DNA of 64,000 nucleotides, taken from the sequence record NC_018855.1; one strand, 5' to 3'. This document shows, in pieces, positions 34,507-40,313 of the stretch. A model generated the notes under the pieces. The model was not told where the DNA came from, did not search any database, and worked only from the letters and a program-made list of their open reading frames with translations. Positions within the stretch are counted from its first letter, which is position 1. Each line of letters begins with the position of its first letter. A program made the position numbers and the translations under genes. Origin of the DNA: Escherichia phage HX01.

Positions 34507-35100
34507 ATGAACACACTGAAGAAACTTGTTGAATTCATCCGCACTAAACTGGGTACTGCTATGGCTAAAAATCTGACTGTAGAAGAACAGTATAACGCAG
34601 CTGCAGATAAGTTGATTACCCAAATCAAAGAACTAAAAACGGCTTCTGTTAAATCTATTAATGAAGAAAAACGTATTCGCGAACTTGTTAATGAAAAGAA
34701 CAAGCAAGCCGCTTCTAAGGAACGTGAAATTCGTAAGCTCCTGGCTGAAGGACAAGATGTTACCATGCATGCTAAGCTTGGTCTTCTGTATCGTCGAACG
34801 GCTGAACAACTTAATACAAAAGCTGACGGGTATGCCGCTATGCGAATTGAAATTGCTCGTAAGGTGGTTGAACTTGACGATGCTCGTCAGAACCTGGCAA
34901 TCAAACTCGAATACATTCGTGAAACTCGAGCAGCCAATGCCCTTGGTATCTCTACGGCTGATGATGTAATTGAAATCGCTGCACTAACTAAGGTTGATAT
35001 TGAAGACACTCTGACTCGTGTTGAAACGTTCAATGGCACTCCAACCGGTGTCGAAACCACTTCTGCTGATGTACAAGAATATATTAACTCTTTGAAATAA
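34507..35100 (+). CDS. Coiled-coil protein, function unknown
   Basis: 198 aa from ATG 34507 (RBS AAAGGTAA); heptad-rich helical sequence. Confidence 0.55.
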
Positions 35101-35108
35101 AATAATAC

Positions 35109-35130
35109 GGAGGACTCCGGTCCTCCTTTT
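35109..35130 (+). terminator. Rho-independent terminator
   Basis: GGAGGAC-TCCG-GTCCTCC hairpin followed by TTTT. Confidence 0.7.
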
Positions 35131-35149: not shown

Positions 35150-35746
35150 ATGCGAAACCAAAATAATGATATTGACTCAATGTTCGAAGAGTTCCGAAAT
35201 AAGGTAAATCCACCTACGTCTTTAGTTGATTCATTACGATATGTTGCAACTGGACGTAAATGGTATTGGTCGTCTTCTTATGAGACAACTGAATATGCAA
35301 ATAACCGAAAATCTTTATTAGCCCCAGGTATTATGATTCATGATATCGGAGCTATTGCTAAACTAGTTGCAGACCATGATATTAGATTCACTGATTTCGT
35401 TGCTCCTACGTGGTCTGTTTGTTGTTTAAACACTGAATGGGACTATATCAGTGAACGTTCAGATGATTACATAGGCTTTAGAGACAAGCTTTTAAGGTCT
35501 AACATGTTTTATATTGATACAGAAGTTCTGGTCAATAATAAAAAATACTACTTCACTTTAATCGTCGATTCTGAAACTATGTATGAAGGCAAGCCTTTGC
35601 TTAAAAGAGTTGATGCTTTAAGTGCTATTGATGCGCTTTATGAAACCATGGTTGTTAGTCCTAATTTCACTAACAATTTAATCCTTGAGCAATTTATTAT
35701 GGAATGTAGAGAATATGTCAAAGCCAACCCTATACATGCCAAGTAA
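35150..35746 (+). CDS. Hypothetical protein with C-terminal EQFIMECR motif
   Basis: 198 aa from ATG 35150 (RBS AAAGGAG). Confidence 0.55.
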   Translation: MRNQNNDIDSMFEEFRNKVNPPTSLVDSLRYVATGRKWYWSSSYETTEYANNRKSLLAPGIMIHDIGAIAKLVADHDIRFTDFVAPTWSVCCLNTEWDYISERSDDYIGFRDKLLRSNMFYIDTEVLVNNKKYYFTLIVDSETMYEGKPLLKRVDALSAIDALYETMVVSPNFTNNLILEQFIMECREYVKANPIHAK

Positions 35747-36110
35747 GCCCTGGGCGTATGAATACAAGCGTAAATTAATCCCAAATGAAGTACTATTTGG
35801 CCCTATTTTAGCTTTAGCATTTTTAATCTTTATGATTATAGGAGCTGTTTTAGATTCCAATAAAGTTATATCGTCTGATGCAGCGTTTTCATTAATGTTC
35901 GTCGCACCACTTATTGTACCGTTTTTATTAATGCCTATTAATTGGGCAGGATATTGGCACCAAGGCCGTCATCACAGAGCCCGATTAAGAGAATGGAAAG
36001 TTCAGTGCGCAAAAGCCCAAGCTCAGTATGATGAAGCTGTTAAAAAGTATGAATATGAAGAAGCTATGGAATTCGTTAAGGAAATAAGATGCAAAAACCT
36101 CAACTCTTAA
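35715..36110 (+). CDS. Small membrane protein, FVKEIRC family variant
   Basis: 131 aa, two hydrophobic helices, C-terminus ...MEFVKEIRCKNLNS. Confidence 0.5.
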   Translation: MSKPTLYMPSKPWAYEYKRKLIPNEVLFGPILALAFLIFMIIGAVLDSNKVISSDAAFSLMFVAPLIVPFLLMPINWAGYWHQGRHHRARLREWKVQCAKAQAQYDEAVKKYEYEEAMEFVKEIRCKNLNS

Positions 36111-36451
36111 CCGTATGGCCTTCTCTTGGTGAGAACATTCTAATTTTTATTATGAGTATTGGCATGGGATTTGCCTTTGGATTAGTTGGATTTCTTATTG
36201 ACGGCGTTGTGTTAGGATTTATAGGGAACACTGGTGGATTCACAGACCAATGGCAGGACTTACGGTATACCCAAGCCTTTGCATCCATCGCATCATTTTG
36301 TACTGTAGTCTATTTTTACTACGATTTTATAAACCATAACAAGAAAAATAAAAAGGTTTACGCTTCTCAAATGATTAGTTATAATGAACTCCTAGCTAGA
36401 CGTGAAAATGAAACAATAGAAAACTTTATTAAGGAATGTAGAAATGAGTAA
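36089..36451 (+). CDS. Small membrane protein, C-terminal ENFIKECR motif family
   Basis: 120 aa, hydrophobic N-terminal half, ends ...ENFIKECRNE. Confidence 0.55.
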   Translation: MQKPQLLTVWPSLGENILIFIMSIGMGFAFGLVGFLIDGVVLGFIGNTGGFTDQWQDLRYTQAFASIASFCTVVYFYYDFINHNKKNKKVYASQMISYNELLARRENETIENFIKECRNE

Positions 36452-36749
36452 GATTATTGAAATTAAAGTACCAGAGTTTAATGATGCCAAATCCGCTTCA
36501 GATGCAATTTATAAACTTCTGAATCAAGCTGAACGTATCGAAGAAGAAGCAACAAAGATCGCAGACCAATATGCCGTATCATTTTCTGTAGGTGATTATG
36601 GTAGCGGTCGTACTTATTATCCTAAGGGTGAAATCGTATCCCAGTGGATGAAAGATGAAATTGAAAATAATGGTGGCGATGTTAAGCGTGAAGGTAATGG
36701 TTACGTTATTACTGAAGGTGCTTGGGTTTCGTCTTCTGCGTTGTGCTAA
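36444..36749 (+). CDS. Small protein, tandem paralogue 1 (C-terminal GxWVSSSxxC)
   Basis: 101 aa ending EGAWVSSSALC. Confidence 0.55.
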   Translation: MSKIIEIKVPEFNDAKSASDAIYKLLNQAERIEEEATKIADQYAVSFSVGDYGSGRTYYPKGEIVSQWMKDEIENNGGDVKREGNGYVITEGAWVSSSALC

Positions 36750-36758
36750 GGAATCATT

Positions 36759-37031
36759 ATGTCTAAAGAACAAACCGAACTGGCTGAAGCTGTAGCAAAA
36801 ATCTATGCAGCTATTGAGGCTGCCAAAGAAATTGCTGATAAACAAAACACAACATTCGACTTGTATCCAGCTTATGGTATGGGTGGAACATATCATTCAC
36901 CCGGACAGCTTAAAGCCGATCTTGAACGTTGTACAAAAAACGGCTATGCTGAATGGGCTGACGTTTACCAATACGACTACAACCTGAGCCTCGAAACTGG
37001 TGGTTGGATCGCATCTTCTCACACTTGCTAA
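36759..37031 (+). CDS. Small protein, tandem paralogue 2
   Basis: 90 aa ending GGWIASSHTC; 9-nt spacer TAAGGAAxCAT to neighbour. Confidence 0.55.
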   Translation: MSKEQTELAEAVAKIYAAIEAAKEIADKQNTTFDLYPAYGMGGTYHSPGQLKADLERCTKNGYAEWADVYQYDYNLSLETGGWIASSHTC

Positions 37032-37040
37032 GGAAACCAT

Positions 37041-37238
37041 ATGTCTCGTGAATTAGATTGTGCTGTACGTACGGCAGTAGCTGCCCTGGAAAACCTGTTC
37101 CAAATTGCAACAGAAGAACGCGAAGAAGTTACATTGTGGATTGAAGATAACGCAGGTCTGAATCTCCAGAACGCGATCTCATTATCCCACAATAGTATCA
37201 CTGTTCAAGGCTGGGTATCATCTAGTTATTCTTGCTAA
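37041..37238 (+). CDS. Small protein, tandem paralogue 3
   Basis: 65 aa ending QGWVSSSYSC. Confidence 0.5.
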   Translation: MSRELDCAVRTAVAALENLFQIATEEREEVTLWIEDNAGLNLQNAISLSHNSITVQGWVSSSYSC

Positions 37239-37242
37239 AACA

Positions 37243-37280
37243 GTTTACAACAAGATAGGGCTATGTTATAGTAGTCCTAT
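37243..37280 (+). promoter_or_regulatory. T4-type early promoter embedded in stem-loop
   Basis: GTTTAC, 18-nt spacer, TATAGT; inverted repeat GATAGGGCTA/TAGTCCTATC. Confidence 0.55.
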
Positions 37281-37300
37281 CAAATTAAATGGAGTCCACA

Positions 37301-37540
37301 ATGATTTATTACGAAAGTATTGGAACCGAAGTGGTTGCTAAAACCATTACTCGTGAAAAGTTTGCAAAGATATTCGATATGCGTTATAAAAAATCTGAAC
37401 ACAAAGGCATCCGATTCGAAGATGCACACTGTACAATTTGCCCTTATAACGAAGACATAAATGGTACAATCGTTCCATTGGTAGAGGCTTCACACGATGA
37501 CCTCTGGGATGAATATGATATCGCATGTCGTGAAATTTAA
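37301..37540 (+). CDS. Hypothetical protein
   Basis: 79 aa from ATG 37301 (RBS AATGGAG). Confidence 0.5.
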   Translation: MIYYESIGTEVVAKTITREKFAKIFDMRYKKSEHKGIRFEDAHCTICPYNEDINGTIVPLVEASHDDLWDEYDIACREI

Positions 37541-37568
37541 GTTAATGAATTAATCCGAGGAAAATATT

Positions 37569-38525
37569 ATGATGTTAGTTATTGGTTCTCGTGCACTTCA
37601 CTATCACGGTCTTATTGATTCTAACGCTATCAAAAATAGTGACTGGGACTTTATTGCAGACCAAGGTTCTTGGAATGCATTCAAAAATCAAATGATGGGT
37701 GTATATGTTCACCAAGATAACCCTGATGTCCAAGTTTTCAAATGCTTCCATAATGGACGCGAAACTCATTTTGAAGCATATATTGTTCCGGCAATCACTA
37801 ATGTCCGTGAATTAGTAGGTGAACTCACTCCTGAAGATTTCACGTCTTCTTATGACCTTTTAAAATACGCCAAGAAAAATTTGACTAAAGACCGTTTGAA
37901 CGGGTTTTACTGGGCAACTCCTGAGATATGTCTTGCAATTAAGATGTCTCATCGTTTCAAGAAAAATAATCCATTCTTTTTAAAGACTATGAACCATATT
38001 CAGTATCTTCGTGGTAAAGGTGTTACACTGAACGATGAACTTACTGAAATTATGCTAAAACGCCAGAAAGAAACCTTGAACTATGCTCACCCAGTTCTTG
38101 ACACTTCTAAAAGTGCGTTCTTTAAAGATGACATCTATACATATGACCATGATACTATTCATGAAGCCATTGCACTAACAGACCGTCCAGCGTATACATT
38201 TTATATGAAAGACGGTTCTGAAGTCATGACATCACGCGAGAAGTTCGAATCATTACCAGAAATGGTCAAATTGGCCGGTGTATACGAAGAATCATGTGTA
38301 CTAGCATTAGAACGTTCTCAAATTCCTAATGACTTTAAAATTAACCCTGAAGCCAGTTTTATGATGGCATTAGAAAAAGTATGTACAAGCATCACCTCCG
38401 GTTGGTTCCGTGAGTATGCCTGGGAAAACTACAGCAAAGTAGTAAGTATGTACCAAAGCTTAGGACATGATGATTACGTCAAACGTTTCAAACAAAATTT
38501 CCATATGGTAAAACCTTTCAAATAA
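37569..38525 (+). CDS. Hypothetical 318-aa protein, possible nucleotidyltransferase-fold N-terminus
   Basis: N-terminal VIGSRA...x16...SDWDF resembles the G[GS]...DxD polymerase-beta-type motif; weak call. Confidence 0.6.
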   Translation: MMLVIGSRALHYHGLIDSNAIKNSDWDFIADQGSWNAFKNQMMGVYVHQDNPDVQVFKCFHNGRETHFEAYIVPAITNVRELVGELTPEDFTSSYDLLKYAKKNLTKDRLNGFYWATPEICLAIKMSHRFKKNNPFFLKTMNHIQYLRGKGVTLNDELTEIMLKRQKETLNYAHPVLDTSKSAFFKDDIYTYDHDTIHEAIALTDRPAYTFYMKDGSEVMTSREKFESLPEMVKLAGVYEESCVLALERSQIPNDFKINPEASFMMALEKVCTSITSGWFREYAWENYSKVVSMYQSLGHDDYVKRFKQNFHMVKPFK

Positions 38526-38537
38526 CTTCACAAAACT

Positions 38538-38575
38538 GTTTACACAATTATAGGGCTATATTATAGTAGTCCTAT
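38538..38575 (+). promoter_or_regulatory. T4-type early promoter embedded in stem-loop
   Basis: GTTTAC, 18-nt spacer, TATAGT; inverted repeat TATAGGGCTA/TAGTCCTAT. Confidence 0.55.
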
Positions 38576-38595
38576 TAAAACATGAGGAGAATATT

Positions 38596-38901
38596 ATGAA
38601 ATTAACAGAAACCAACCGAATTGGTCTTTTAACAATATTTGCATCACCTTTTTACGCAGCCCTTTCTGTTGCAGTATTACAAAAGGCTTACGATATGGAT
38701 GGTGTTCCTGGTTTTGTATTCTTATCACCGTTTTTATTATTCGTCGGAGCATTGTTATTATATGCCACGACTAGTTTCGACCATAATGTCTGGGTCAATT
38801 ATAAATGTAAATTGTCTGAAGAAGAACACGCAGAAGCTCGTAAAAAAGCTATTGAATCTACCAATCTAGAAAATTTCATTAAAGAATGTCGAGGAAAATA
38901 A
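38596..38901 (+). CDS. Small membrane protein, C-terminal ENFIKECR motif family
   Basis: 101 aa, two hydrophobic helices, ends ...NLENFIKECRGK. Confidence 0.55.
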   Translation: MKLTETNRIGLLTIFASPFYAALSVAVLQKAYDMDGVPGFVFLSPFLLFVGALLLYATTSFDHNVWVNYKCKLSEEEHAEARKKAIESTNLENFIKECRGK

Positions 38902-38902
38902 T

Positions 38903-39589
38903 ATGAATAGTTCTAAAGTGTTTAATAGTCAAGCTCGTGCAGTAGGTGGTTTCGCTGGTAAAATTTCTAACGATAAAATCAAAAACGAACCTATGTTCTT
39001 CAACAGCTCGTTAGCCTTCGCTTTTGATAATGGTGGCCCTATTACTCGCAGCTTCATCATGAACCTACCAGATGATTGGAACACCGACCAGGTTGTATTT
39101 GATTCACGAGTCCACATGCTGATGCCTGGTTGGTATCCTGCTATTCCTGGATATCACCATGATGACGTACCACGCCCTGATATTCCAGTTGGTCAACACT
39201 TTATTACTGCAGGACAACCTGATTATGACAATCCTCGCTATTTGTCTGAACATATTCTTGGTCTTGTTAACGCTGATGTGTGTCCTACTCATTTTGCAAC
39301 AGGAACTGCAGAGTTCAGTCAGATTCCTGATGGCGAACTTATCTATCGTCAGTGGCACAAAGAAGTCCTCGAAAAAATTGAAAAAGGTGAACTAGAGAAA
39401 TGGGAAGCTCCAGATCGTACTCTTCTTCAGTTTGATTGGCAAACATGGCACACTGGTTCTCGTGCAATTAGTAACGGATGGCGTTGGTTCGGACGTGTAT
39501 CTCGTAATACAGACCGAGTTAAAAAGATTACCAATGAAATTCGTGTCAATGCTCAAGTTTATCTGGAATTCCCTATGGAAGGCTGGTAA
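38903..39589 (+). CDS. Hypothetical protein
   Basis: 228-aa ORF, no recognisable motif. Confidence 0.55.
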   Translation: MNSSKVFNSQARAVGGFAGKISNDKIKNEPMFFNSSLAFAFDNGGPITRSFIMNLPDDWNTDQVVFDSRVHMLMPGWYPAIPGYHHDDVPRPDIPVGQHFITAGQPDYDNPRYLSEHILGLVNADVCPTHFATGTAEFSQIPDGELIYRQWHKEVLEKIEKGELEKWEAPDRTLLQFDWQTWHTGSRAISNGWRWFGRVSRNTDRVKKITNEIRVNAQVYLEFPMEGW

Positions 39590-40080
39590 TGATTAACAAA
39601 ACATATTGGTCTAATATAGACGATAGCAATGAAGGTATTTCATACTATTCAGTAGATTGGACAGGATGTCCATCCTACTTAGTGAAAAATATTTGCCAAG
39701 AATTTAAAATCGACCAGCCAGCAGGTATTATCGTGAACAGATACATTAATGGATATCAACCTATCGATGAAGTAATACGAACAACTCAAGCTGAGCTTGA
39801 AAGGTTTTTCAATAAGTGCCAATGGATAACAGGATGGATTATATTTGTACCATCTATATGGTTTTTCAGTACTAAGGTGAGTTCTTTCGGTTTTGTTGAT
39901 ATTATTGCTATCTTATTAGCATCTAGTATCATAAGTGTTGTTGGTGGCATCATTGGCGGCGGTACCGCCGCCATCATTATTAATCTTGTTAAAAGTAGTT
40001 TACAAGAACATAAAGACAAGATAAAAGCCAAGAATAATGAAGTTGAACGTTTTATTACCGAATGCAGGAATTTGAGATGA
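39589..40080 (+). CDS. Membrane protein, C-terminal ERFITECR motif family
   Basis: 163 aa, hydrophobic central region with Gly-rich TM helix, ends ...VERFITECRNLR. Confidence 0.55.
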   Translation: MINKTYWSNIDDSNEGISYYSVDWTGCPSYLVKNICQEFKIDQPAGIIVNRYINGYQPIDEVIRTTQAELERFFNKCQWITGWIIFVPSIWFFSTKVSSFGFVDIIAILLASSIISVVGGIIGGGTAAIIINLVKSSLQEHKDKIKAKNNEVERFITECRNLR

Positions 40081-40313
40081 GTATAGCAATTTACATTAAA
40101 TCAGAATCATGTGATTCTTATCTGTATTCCTATGATACCGGAACGTCAGAAGAGAAAATCAAAGAAGATTTAGAAAGCGACTTGGATATGTTCCGACCTA
40201 TTTCTGATTATATGGTCCAAATATCTGATAGTGAAAGTCCGTCAACAGAAACATGTGTTGAAATTATTATACGAGATATCTTTAAACAATCATGGGACCG
40301 AGATGATGAGTAA
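40077..40313 (+). CDS. Small acidic hypothetical protein
   Basis: 78 aa from ATG 40077; overlaps nudE start. Confidence 0.45.
   Translation: MSIAIYIKSESCDSYLYSYDTGTSEEKIKEDLESDLDMFRPISDYMVQISDSESPSTETCVEIIIRDIFKQSWDRDDE

Follow-up and report, generated by a model that had tools for sequence, protein, structure and literature searches.

A C-terminal tail peptide shared by adjacent early proteins of T4-like phages is encoded together with the ribosome-binding site of the next gene

In the stretch of 64,000 nucleotides of Escherichia phage HX01 analysed here (NC_018855.1; this whole stretch is called the window below), five open reading frames (ORFs) lying between positions 35,150 and 40,080 carry, at or close to their C-termini, versions of one short peptide exemplified by FIKECR. 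Our analysis leads to an explanation in four parts: the tail is kept by selection on the peptide in several genera of T4-like phages, the DNA that encodes it also supplies the Shine-Dalgarno sequence of the next cistron, crossovers at the resulting gene junctions have removed whole genes, and the peptide may act as a common docking or assembly tag. Taken as a whole, we give this explanation a probability of about 0.6.

Five early proteins of a Mosigvirus carry a common tail

By its sequence, the window is that of a Mosigvirus, a T4-like phage, and Mosigvirus genomes (GADS24, JS09, PhAPEC2 and others) match the whole 5.3-kb region at 95-96% identity. Comparison with the annotations of JS09 and T4 identified the five ORFs as homologues of T4 e.5, e.4, e.3 and e.2 and of RB69ORF133c (ORF133c below), in a cluster located on the early strand between e.6 and nudE/e (lysozyme)/denV (Table 1). 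The orthology to T4 e.5, e.4, e.3 and e.2 extends over the full length, with PHROG E-values of about 1e-50 to 1e-95 and 34-53% identity to the T4 proteins. PHROGs place each of the five ORFs in a separate family of unknown function (2607, 2604, 2330, 9798 and 2203). A local copy of Pfam holds no model for the five proteins and returned nothing above threshold, the weak matches to Glam1, PcfK and Glt_symporter being noise; newer Pfam accessions are found on relatives of e.5 (PF26876), e.4 (PF26873) and e.2 (PF26896, 'Phage_T4_Y06M').

All five ORFs are present where an earlier note on this DNA had placed them, with the C-termini that it gave: ...EQFIMECREYVKANPIHAK in e.5, ...EFVKEIRCKNLNS in e.4, ...ENFIKECRNE in e.3, ...ENFIKECRGK in ORF133c and ...ERFITECRNLR in e.2. 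Its description of the ORFs as ending in the motif fits four of them, and has to be amended for e.5, in which 11 codons separate the motif from the stop. In a six-frame translation of the 64 kb, the pattern F[IV].E[CI]R gave five matches, all on the + strand, only in these ORFs and 2-11 residues from their stop codons, while block-shuffled windows gave a mean of 0.16 matches and a maximum of two. Since the pattern was defined after the data had been seen, independent support comes from the recurrence of the tail in other genera, described below. The complete genome of GADS24 (168,896 bp) contains exactly four matches to F[IVL].[ED]C[RK], all in this cluster. A hidden Markov model (HMM) of the tail detected five ORFs at E <= 1e-4 in GADS24, the next best having an E-value of 0.37, and four ORFs at E <= 2e-4 in T4, with the next best at 0.16; because the model was built from these same tails, these searches show only that further members are absent elsewhere in the two genomes. 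Taken together, these results show that the tail occurs only in this gene cluster, and that the motif in the five ORFs is real and non-random.

The tail is conserved in five genera of T4-like phages

The form h-x-x-F-[IV]-x-x-C-R, where h is a hydrophobic residue, is kept in Tequatro-, Mosig-, Dhaka-, Gapriver- and Kanagawavirus. In T4, e.5 ends with ...EKFVKECREYVKAITIPSK, e.4 with ...MKFVKESRCKSQS and e.3 with ...KEFVIDCRKIK, and the 162-aa e.2 of other Tequatroviruses ends with NFITECRKLK. Three to four such tails are found in each of Dhakavirus AnYang, Gaprivervirus VR26, Kanagawavirus Entb_45 and a metagenomic T4-like contig (L016), with examples such as LNRFITECREYAKEV, LETFIKECKS, LNSFIKECRK, KFIKQCR, KFVKGCR, RFVQECR, TFIKMCR and NWIEGCRK. 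The gene order e.6-e.5-e.4-e.3-...-e.2-(130c)-nudE-e is likewise found in Gaprivervirus, Kanagawavirus and contig L016, and Dhakavirus AnYang has the same order except that e.4 is missing. ORF133c is confined to Mosigvirus, its 148 records all being Mosigvirus-like.

Remote relatives of e.2 give the clearest view of what is retained. An exhaustive HMMER search with e.2 returned nine representatives of 50%-identity clusters, with identities of 24-32%. Each of them ends [FW]-I-[KE]-x-C-R-[KRN], and their alignment, at about 27% identity, has nine invariant columns that include I156, C159 and R160. For e.3, a search of IMG/VR for related loci gave five loci, and word-indexed protein searches with e.3 and e.4 returned near-identical sequences only. 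Across 37 distinct tails, position -3 is hydrophobic (95%), F or W stands at 0, I or V at +1, mostly K at +2, E, G or D at +3, C at +4 (30/37) and R at +5 (35/37), a profile in which positions 0, +1, +4 and +5 are partly fixed by the regular expression that collected the tails.

The motif is short and was defined post hoc, and an AT-rich genome might be thought to yield F/I/K-rich protein ends by chance or composition. This is extremely unlikely: against 0.16 expected matches, the five observed all lie at ORF ends of one 5-kb cluster, the profiles of different tails match one another with E-values of 1e-6 to 1e-7, and five genera, as well as metagenomic relatives, have the tail. Conservation across genera by itself already refutes a chance origin.

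Similarity between the five families is restricted to the tail

The five ORFs had been described as a paralogous family of small membrane proteins. Kyte-Doolittle profiles bear out the hydrophobic helices claimed for four of them, with two hydrophobic segments each in e.4, ORF133c and e.2, a single long one (residues 15-48) in e.3 and none in e.5. Homology over the protein bodies was not found, as hhalign aligned C-terminal columns only: 44 columns between e.3 and e.4 (probability 91%, E = 1e-6), 17 between e.3 and e.2 (93%, E = 4e-7), 21 between e.2 and ORF133c (85%, E = 6e-6) and 13 between e.5 and e.2 (22%, E = 1e-3). Because the similarity between families lies in the last 13-44 residues only, what is common to the five is a tail, and not a full-length paralogous family. 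The resemblance extends further in two pairs. The e.4 and e.3 proteins also share an N-terminal M-x-K-P-x-L and a weak full-length BLAST similarity, and ORF133c resembles the C-terminal, hairpin-plus-tail half of e.2, with a weak match to the e.2 family (phrog_2203; E = 0.0017 over 80 residues). Each pair may thus be truly, if distantly, paralogous, in the second case over the C-terminal half of e.2, and a 'hairpin + tail' module may therefore have duplicated. By contrast, e.5 and a soluble 99-aa Kanagawavirus protein (L012:3072-3371) share the tail only. From BLAST, the proteins at the e.5 position of Dhaka-, Gapriver- and Kanagawavirus had been taken for unrelated bodies, a reading that we withdrew; hhalign aligns them with T4 e.5 over 104-134 columns (probability 76-79%), which suggests that they are remote e.5 homologues.

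The e.2 protein consists of an N-terminal domain, a transmembrane hairpin and a long helix that closes with the tail. In Mosigvirus, it has in addition an internal motif-like stretch, AELERFFNKCQW (window ~39790-39825, residues 68-79), directly before the first transmembrane segment. This stretch resembles the C-terminal NEVERFITECRN, is not kept in most other e.2 relatives, and may be the trace of a fusion between a soluble tail-bearing gene and a hairpin-plus-tail gene. As for e.3 and e.4, some phage genomes annotate them as 'sulfurtransferase', and an e.4 homologue on a 508-bp contig bears the deposited name 'sulfurtransferase [Xanthomonas pisi DSM 18956]'; these labels look like contamination and annotation carry-over rather than pointers to function.

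The same DNA encodes the peptide and the next ribosome-binding site

Codon usage was compared in a junction set of 36 non-identical sequences. Arginine is encoded by AGA (14), AGG (9), CGA (5), CGT (5) and CGC (1), cysteine by TGT (16) and TGC (11), and the third positions of the Phe and Ile/Val codons vary too. Moreover, e.2 of Entb_45 retains KFVKGCRNGRN though the next gene begins about 50 nt downstream. The use of five Arg codons and both Cys codons, together with this retained tail, shows selection, as read from codon usage, acting on the tail peptide; as synonymous codons vary freely, the conservation is not primarily a feature of the DNA. The DNA consensus proposed in the earlier note, TTYATTAARGAATGTAGA, is recovered with at most one mismatch at three of the five junctions (e.5, e.3 and ORF133c), and e.4 and e.2 differ from it by more than three.

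The proximity of the motif to the following start, also pointed out in that note, is general: at all five junctions, the downstream ATG lies 1-14 nt past the Arg codon. The start of e.4 sits within e.5, 5 nt past the Arg codon, and the ATG of e.3 overlaps the Arg/Cys codons of e.4. Consecutive genes overlap by 32, 22, 8 and 4 nt or, in one case, leave a gap of 1 nt, and the Shine-Dalgarno sequence lies within the upstream ORF, the layout of coupled junctions. The further proposal that the motif DNA provides the ribosome-binding region holds for four of the five, with AAGGA, GAGGA or AGGA 5-9 nt before the ATG, the e.5-to-e.4 junction being weak. Codon choice is strongly biased at the positions concerned. 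Lysine at +2 is AAG in 17/21 cases, versus 23% among the Lys codons of the window's genes (17% if Glu is next; binomial p = 3e-8, computed on related sequences), and Arg is AGA or AGG in 23/34, versus a background of 21%. Amino acids vary most at the two central positions of the motif, where the codons are nearly always purine-rich (mostly AAG GAA), as fits a Shine-Dalgarno sequence set between the fixed positions of the peptide. In view of this choice of AAG and AGR codons and of the purine-rich centre, the tail is dual-coded with the Shine-Dalgarno sequence of the next gene, the codon bias showing that the central codons and the Arg codon supply this sequence to a tightly coupled next cistron.

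Tail junctions have served as joints for the loss of whole genes

Two natural deletions have their end points in the tails. In T2 and in Yersinia phage ZN18, nudE directly follows e.3, and IME340 gives the same single-piece alignment, e.2 having been lost. T2 and ZN18 resemble e.3 as far as GATTGCAGGAAA, from where the e.2 tail and the nudE start follow (TTAAAATGAAAAC...), yielding the hybrid tail ...FV[IS]DCRKLK. The switch from e.3 to the e.2 tail occurs inside GATTGCAGGAAA, so the excision of e.2 runs precisely from the Cys-Arg-Lys codons of one tail to those of the next. As e.2 is present at this place in all other genera examined, its loss is probably the derived state. The second case is AnYang, which lacks e.4 and in which ...AAAGAGGTTCAAAATG of the e.5 tail runs directly into GAGCGGCCT... 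of e.3; VR26 has both of the corresponding junctions, AAAGAGGTTCAAAATG|CGAAC from e.5 to e.4 and AAGGAGGTTCGTAATG|GAACGG from e.4 to e.3. These two independent natural variants show that the 9-16 nt of similarity arising from the shared tail and ribosome-binding site can mediate clean, in-frame loss of a gene unit. The earlier suggestion that the junction is conserved for recombination or translational coupling as well as for protein function thus stands for the ribosome-binding site and the crossovers, and falls short in that conservation is not primarily at the DNA level.

Two further broken members have other histories. In Escherichia phage LF82-41 (L015 4930-5110), e.3 is a pseudogene with an internal deletion of about 250 nt and 16 nt of filler, its last 29 codons being out of frame and the downstream ribosome-binding site and ORF139c start retained; we rejected it as a third junction crossover, the deletion being internal and away from the motif. 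In the T4 reference, e.2 (NC_000866 67472-67960, minus strand) is annotated with 102 aa versus 162 aa in relatives. Two frameshifts in it, some 80 nt from one another, cancel out, so that the original frame is regained and closes with ...NFITECRKLK; this points to a pseudogene or else to an error in the old sequencing. That single members have been lost repeatedly shows that each is dispensable and none essential.

The tail may be a shared docking or assembly peptide

AlphaFold2 models place the motif at the end of helices. In e.5, it lies in a terminal helix of residues 177-192 (predicted local distance difference test, pLDDT, 61; predicted template-modelling score, pTM, 0.66). In e.2, two helices span residues 59-95 and 102-161 (pLDDT 76, pTM 0.42), and the motif ends the second of them, a continuous helix that begins as the second transmembrane segment. 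Spaced at i, i+3, i+4 and i+7, the conserved residues fall on one face of an amphipathic helix. The hydrophobic segments have basic residues on both their N- and C-terminal sides, so that, by the positive-inside rule, the tails of the membrane members are probably cytoplasmic, like that of the soluble e.5.

We propose that these proteins share a portable tail of some 10-15 residues, h(-3)-x-x-F(0)-[IV](+1)-x-x-C(+4)-R(+5), with another 1-15 residues after it, in which one face of the helix would carry L/F, F, I/V and C. The helix would continue from the last transmembrane segment, as modelled for e.2 and assumed by analogy for e.4, e.3 and ORF133c, and in e.5 it would end a soluble body. Such an amphipathic tail could act as a common tag for docking or assembly, through which these proteins, most of them in the inner membrane, would be tied to one shared partner: to one another, or to some conserved protein of the phage or the host. 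A strictly conserved hydrophobic helical face with an Arg, a probable cytoplasmic site, membrane as well as soluble carriers, and a single co-transcribed cluster make docking the most economical reading. The descriptive parts of our explanation (peptide-level motif, dual-coded ribosome-binding site and junction crossovers) are likely to very likely; the docking or assembly role, taken alone, is a tentative proposal drawn from sequence.

Several observations weigh against this explanation. The Cys is not universal in the tails, since in e.4 it is displaced by two positions (EIRC, ESRC) or absent (KEVRN in VR26, KNVR in Entb_45, ETLRK in L016). The tails of a genome were not seen to change all together, as only e.2 has W in L016; the other L016 tails keep F, and concerted evolution of the tails within a genome is thus unsupported. 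The AlphaFold2 models are of moderate quality and give the tail no tertiary contact, the e.2 model showing none between tail and N-terminal domain, and the computed comparisons gave no similarity to defence or anti-defence models or to solved structures and pointed to no partner for the tail. The codon-bias statistics rest on phylogenetically related sequences. Finally, members are lost or broken in nature (e.2 in T2 and in the T4 reference, e.4 in AnYang, e.3 in LF82-41). A Foldseek search of the e.5 model against the PDB gave a best E-value of 0.039 with a template-modelling score of 0.2, to small alarmone synthetases and kinesins, a likeness that we take as meaningless.

Were the conserved unit a DNA or RNA junction module, comprising Shine-Dalgarno sequence, start and U/A-rich leader for coupling, a recombination joint, or both, the peptide would be a by-product. 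The constant 1-14 nt between Arg codon and ATG, which holds even in e.5 whose ORF runs 11 codons on, the AAG/AGR bias that generates AAGGA and AGGA, and the crossovers at these junctions all fit such a module; yet it would account neither for an Arg held through five codons of two codon families and a Cys through both of its codons, nor for F, I/V and C, which cannot be derived from a Shine-Dalgarno requirement, nor for the tail of Entb_45 e.2, kept without an adjoining start, nor for tail residues invariant among e.2 proteins of about 27% overall identity. With the DNA consensus matched at only three of the five junctions, a pure nucleotide element is disfavoured, and we consider it unlikely. 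The earlier note had also brought up exclusion or immunity, and the five might be full-length paralogues of one small-membrane-protein family acting in superinfection exclusion or immunity, as their early and accessory nature, the hydrophobic segments in four of the five, the N-terminal MxKPxL and 44-column C-terminal match of e.4 and e.3, and the 80-residue match of ORF133c to the e.2 PHROG would allow. Such a family is nonetheless improbable: hhalign aligns just the 13-44 C-terminal columns, e.5 and the Kanagawavirus protein of L012 are soluble, the PHROG search of the five ORFs gave no match to Imm or Sp, PADLOC returned nothing for the cluster proteins, and the closest genome, GADS24, has its annotated imm and spackle at ~124.7-125.7 kb, a long way from the cluster. 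The proposed exclusion or immunity role is thus unsupported.

A C-terminal signal for degradation, by which a host or phage protease would remove early proteins at a set time, is a reasonable alternative, and in our estimate as improbable as the exclusion family. It would suit an exposed, probably cytoplasmic tail common to otherwise unrelated bodies, as well as the dispensability of the members; against it stand the 11 further residues after the motif in e.5, and the tail is not known to resemble degrons such as the ssrA-type LAA or the MuA-type basic tails, while a strictly conserved amphipathic face is as compatible with binding as with degradation. T4 prohead protease cleaves at L/I-x-E, and the I/V-x-E within the motif was considered as such a site and rejected, the proteins being early, membrane-bound and non-virion and the position varying (V, D, Q, G, N). 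In its most far-reaching form, the docking proposal would make the tail a dedicated tag that recruits interchangeable small inner-membrane proteins and soluble adaptors (e.2-e.5 and ORF133c) to one conserved hub, for example the unusually conserved e.6 or a host envelope or cytoplasmic machine, giving a modular phage membrane complex with membership reshuffled by crossovers in the tag-coding DNA; so specific a version is rather unlikely.

Comparison with known systems

The same genes, e.2-e.5, are found in the same order in T4, between e.6 and nudE/e, and are listed in databases as conserved hypothetical or predicted membrane proteins, each a separate family of unknown function. No paper among 8 million full texts contains the motif strings, and literature searching on the T4 e.x gene names gave nothing relevant; the tail across families, its dual coding and its use as a deletion joint are previously uncatalogued features of known orphan genes. 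In function, the closest analogy would be with shared C-terminal docking peptides such as the tail of the single-stranded DNA-binding protein SSB and the sliding-clamp-binding tails of T4 gp43, gp33 and gp55. These, too, are very short conserved C-terminal peptides on otherwise unrelated proteins of one system, an arrangement that implies a single common binding site, but they are unrelated in sequence, and the carriers here are mostly small membrane proteins. T4 Imm and Sp, small membrane or periplasmic exclusion proteins, are comparable in being early, small, membrane-associated and non-essential; they lie at another locus and have no sequence similarity to the cluster proteins.

Repeats at gene boundaries of T4-type hyperplastic regions have been described as PeSL cassettes (promoter-early stem-loops), non-coding modules of about 50 nt with promoter and terminator (PMC2839356, PMC4122927). 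Like them, the tail junctions are short repeats at accessory-gene boundaries that mediate gain or loss of whole genes. They differ from PeSLs because they are coding, specifying a conserved peptide and a Shine-Dalgarno sequence, much shorter (9-16 nt), and devoid of promoter and hairpin. Gene loss through tail junctions thereby complements the non-coding PeSL route of shuffling in T4-type phages, and about 20 nt come under three constraints: a peptide motif, the ribosome-binding site of the next gene, and microhomology through which whole genes can be lost in frame. No large phage has been studied better than T4, yet about half its genes, including e.2-e.8, are without known function, and a peptide tag common to four or five adjacent early proteins through five genera offers a concrete handle on this uncharacterised block. 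One tail peptide could be used as bait for a common partner, and clean loss-of-function alleles would follow from single F/I/C/R substitutions. In practice, the consequence is modest, and on its own the result reveals no new kind of system.

Features of the cluster and its neighbourhood

Table 1. Tail-bearing genes, their tails and adjoining features (positions in the window)
Feature	Position	Strand	Description
e.6	34507..35100	+	Conserved coiled-coil protein directly upstream of the cluster
Terminator-like hairpin	35109..35126	+	G+C-rich, followed by a T run (GGAGGACTCCGGTCCTCC TTTT), between e.6 and e.5
e.5 homologue	35150..35746	+	198 aa, soluble; phrog_2607, E 1e-94; JS09 annotation
e.5 tail motif FIMECR	35693-35710	+	11 codons ahead of the stop
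e.4 homologue	35715..36110	+	131 aa, two hydrophobic (transmembrane-like) segments; phrog_2604, E 4e-63
e.4 tail FVKEIR-C	36072-36092	+	From alignment of e.4 relatives
e.3 homologue	36089..36451	+	120 aa, membrane protein; phrog_2330, E 9e-50
e.3 tail FIKECR	36425-36442	+	From alignment of e.3 relatives
ATG of ORF139c	36444..36446	+	1 nt past the e.3 Arg codon; AAGGA (Lys-Glu codons of the motif) 8 nt upstream
RB69ORF133c homologue	38596..38901	+	101 aa, two hydrophobic (transmembrane-like) segments; phrog_9798, E 7e-68
ORF133c tail FIKECR	38875-38892	+	
ORF132c	38903..39589	+	228 aa; start 10 nt past the ORF133c Arg codon; Shine-Dalgarno GAGGA (Arg-Gly codons)
e.2 homologue	39589..40080	+	163 aa; phrog_2203, E 1e-52; PF26896 Phage_T4_Y06M on relatives
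e.2 tail FITECR	40051-40068	+	
ORF130c	40077..40313	+	78 aa; start (ATGA) overlaps the e.2 stop; AGGA (Arg-Asn codons of the motif) 7 nt upstream

The gene directly upstream, e.6, is 62-88% identical across five lineages, versus 25-50% for neighbouring genes, and its product is all-helical in character. It has no Pfam match; its profile gave a single match in the PDB, to Vipp1/IM30 (8qfv), colinear over residues 3-124 with a non-significant E-value of 1.4, and hhalign against E. coli PspA, using an approximate sequence, gave a probability of 0.3%. A PspA/Vipp1-like e.6 as partner of the tail is thus a weak lead from profile comparison. T4 has a GGGGCTTCGGCCCC hairpin between e.6 and e.5 that is comparable to the one in the window.

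Every lineage examined has the same C-terminus of ORF132c, ...RVSRNTDRVKKITNEIRVNAQVYLEFPMEGW. The stop of this gene invariably overlaps the start of e.2 (TAATG); the gene always adjoins e.2 in other genera and is absent from Tequatrovirus; a functional partnership with e.2 is possible. Downstream of e.3, three tandem paralogues of phrog_899 (36444-36749, 36759-37031 and 37041-37238; 101, 90 and 65 aa) end G-x-W-[VI]-[SA]-S-S-x-x-C-stop, each being followed by the junction TGCTAAGGAAnCnTTATGTCT. At the corresponding place, Dhaka-, Gapriver- and Kanagawavirus and contig L016 have four to six copies. With their terminal Cys, these paralogues form a further family that is recognised by its C-terminus and is separate from the first. 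The cluster also contains two PeSL-like repeats of 48 nt, 85% identical (37237-37284 and 38532-38579), each with an early-type promoter (TTTACA-17-TATAGT) and a stem-loop (ATAGGGCTAT...ATAGTAGTCCTAT). They flank ORF135c and a DUF7277/DUF7275 gene, and JS09 has, beside the second copy, an extra 201-nt ORF that is absent from the window.

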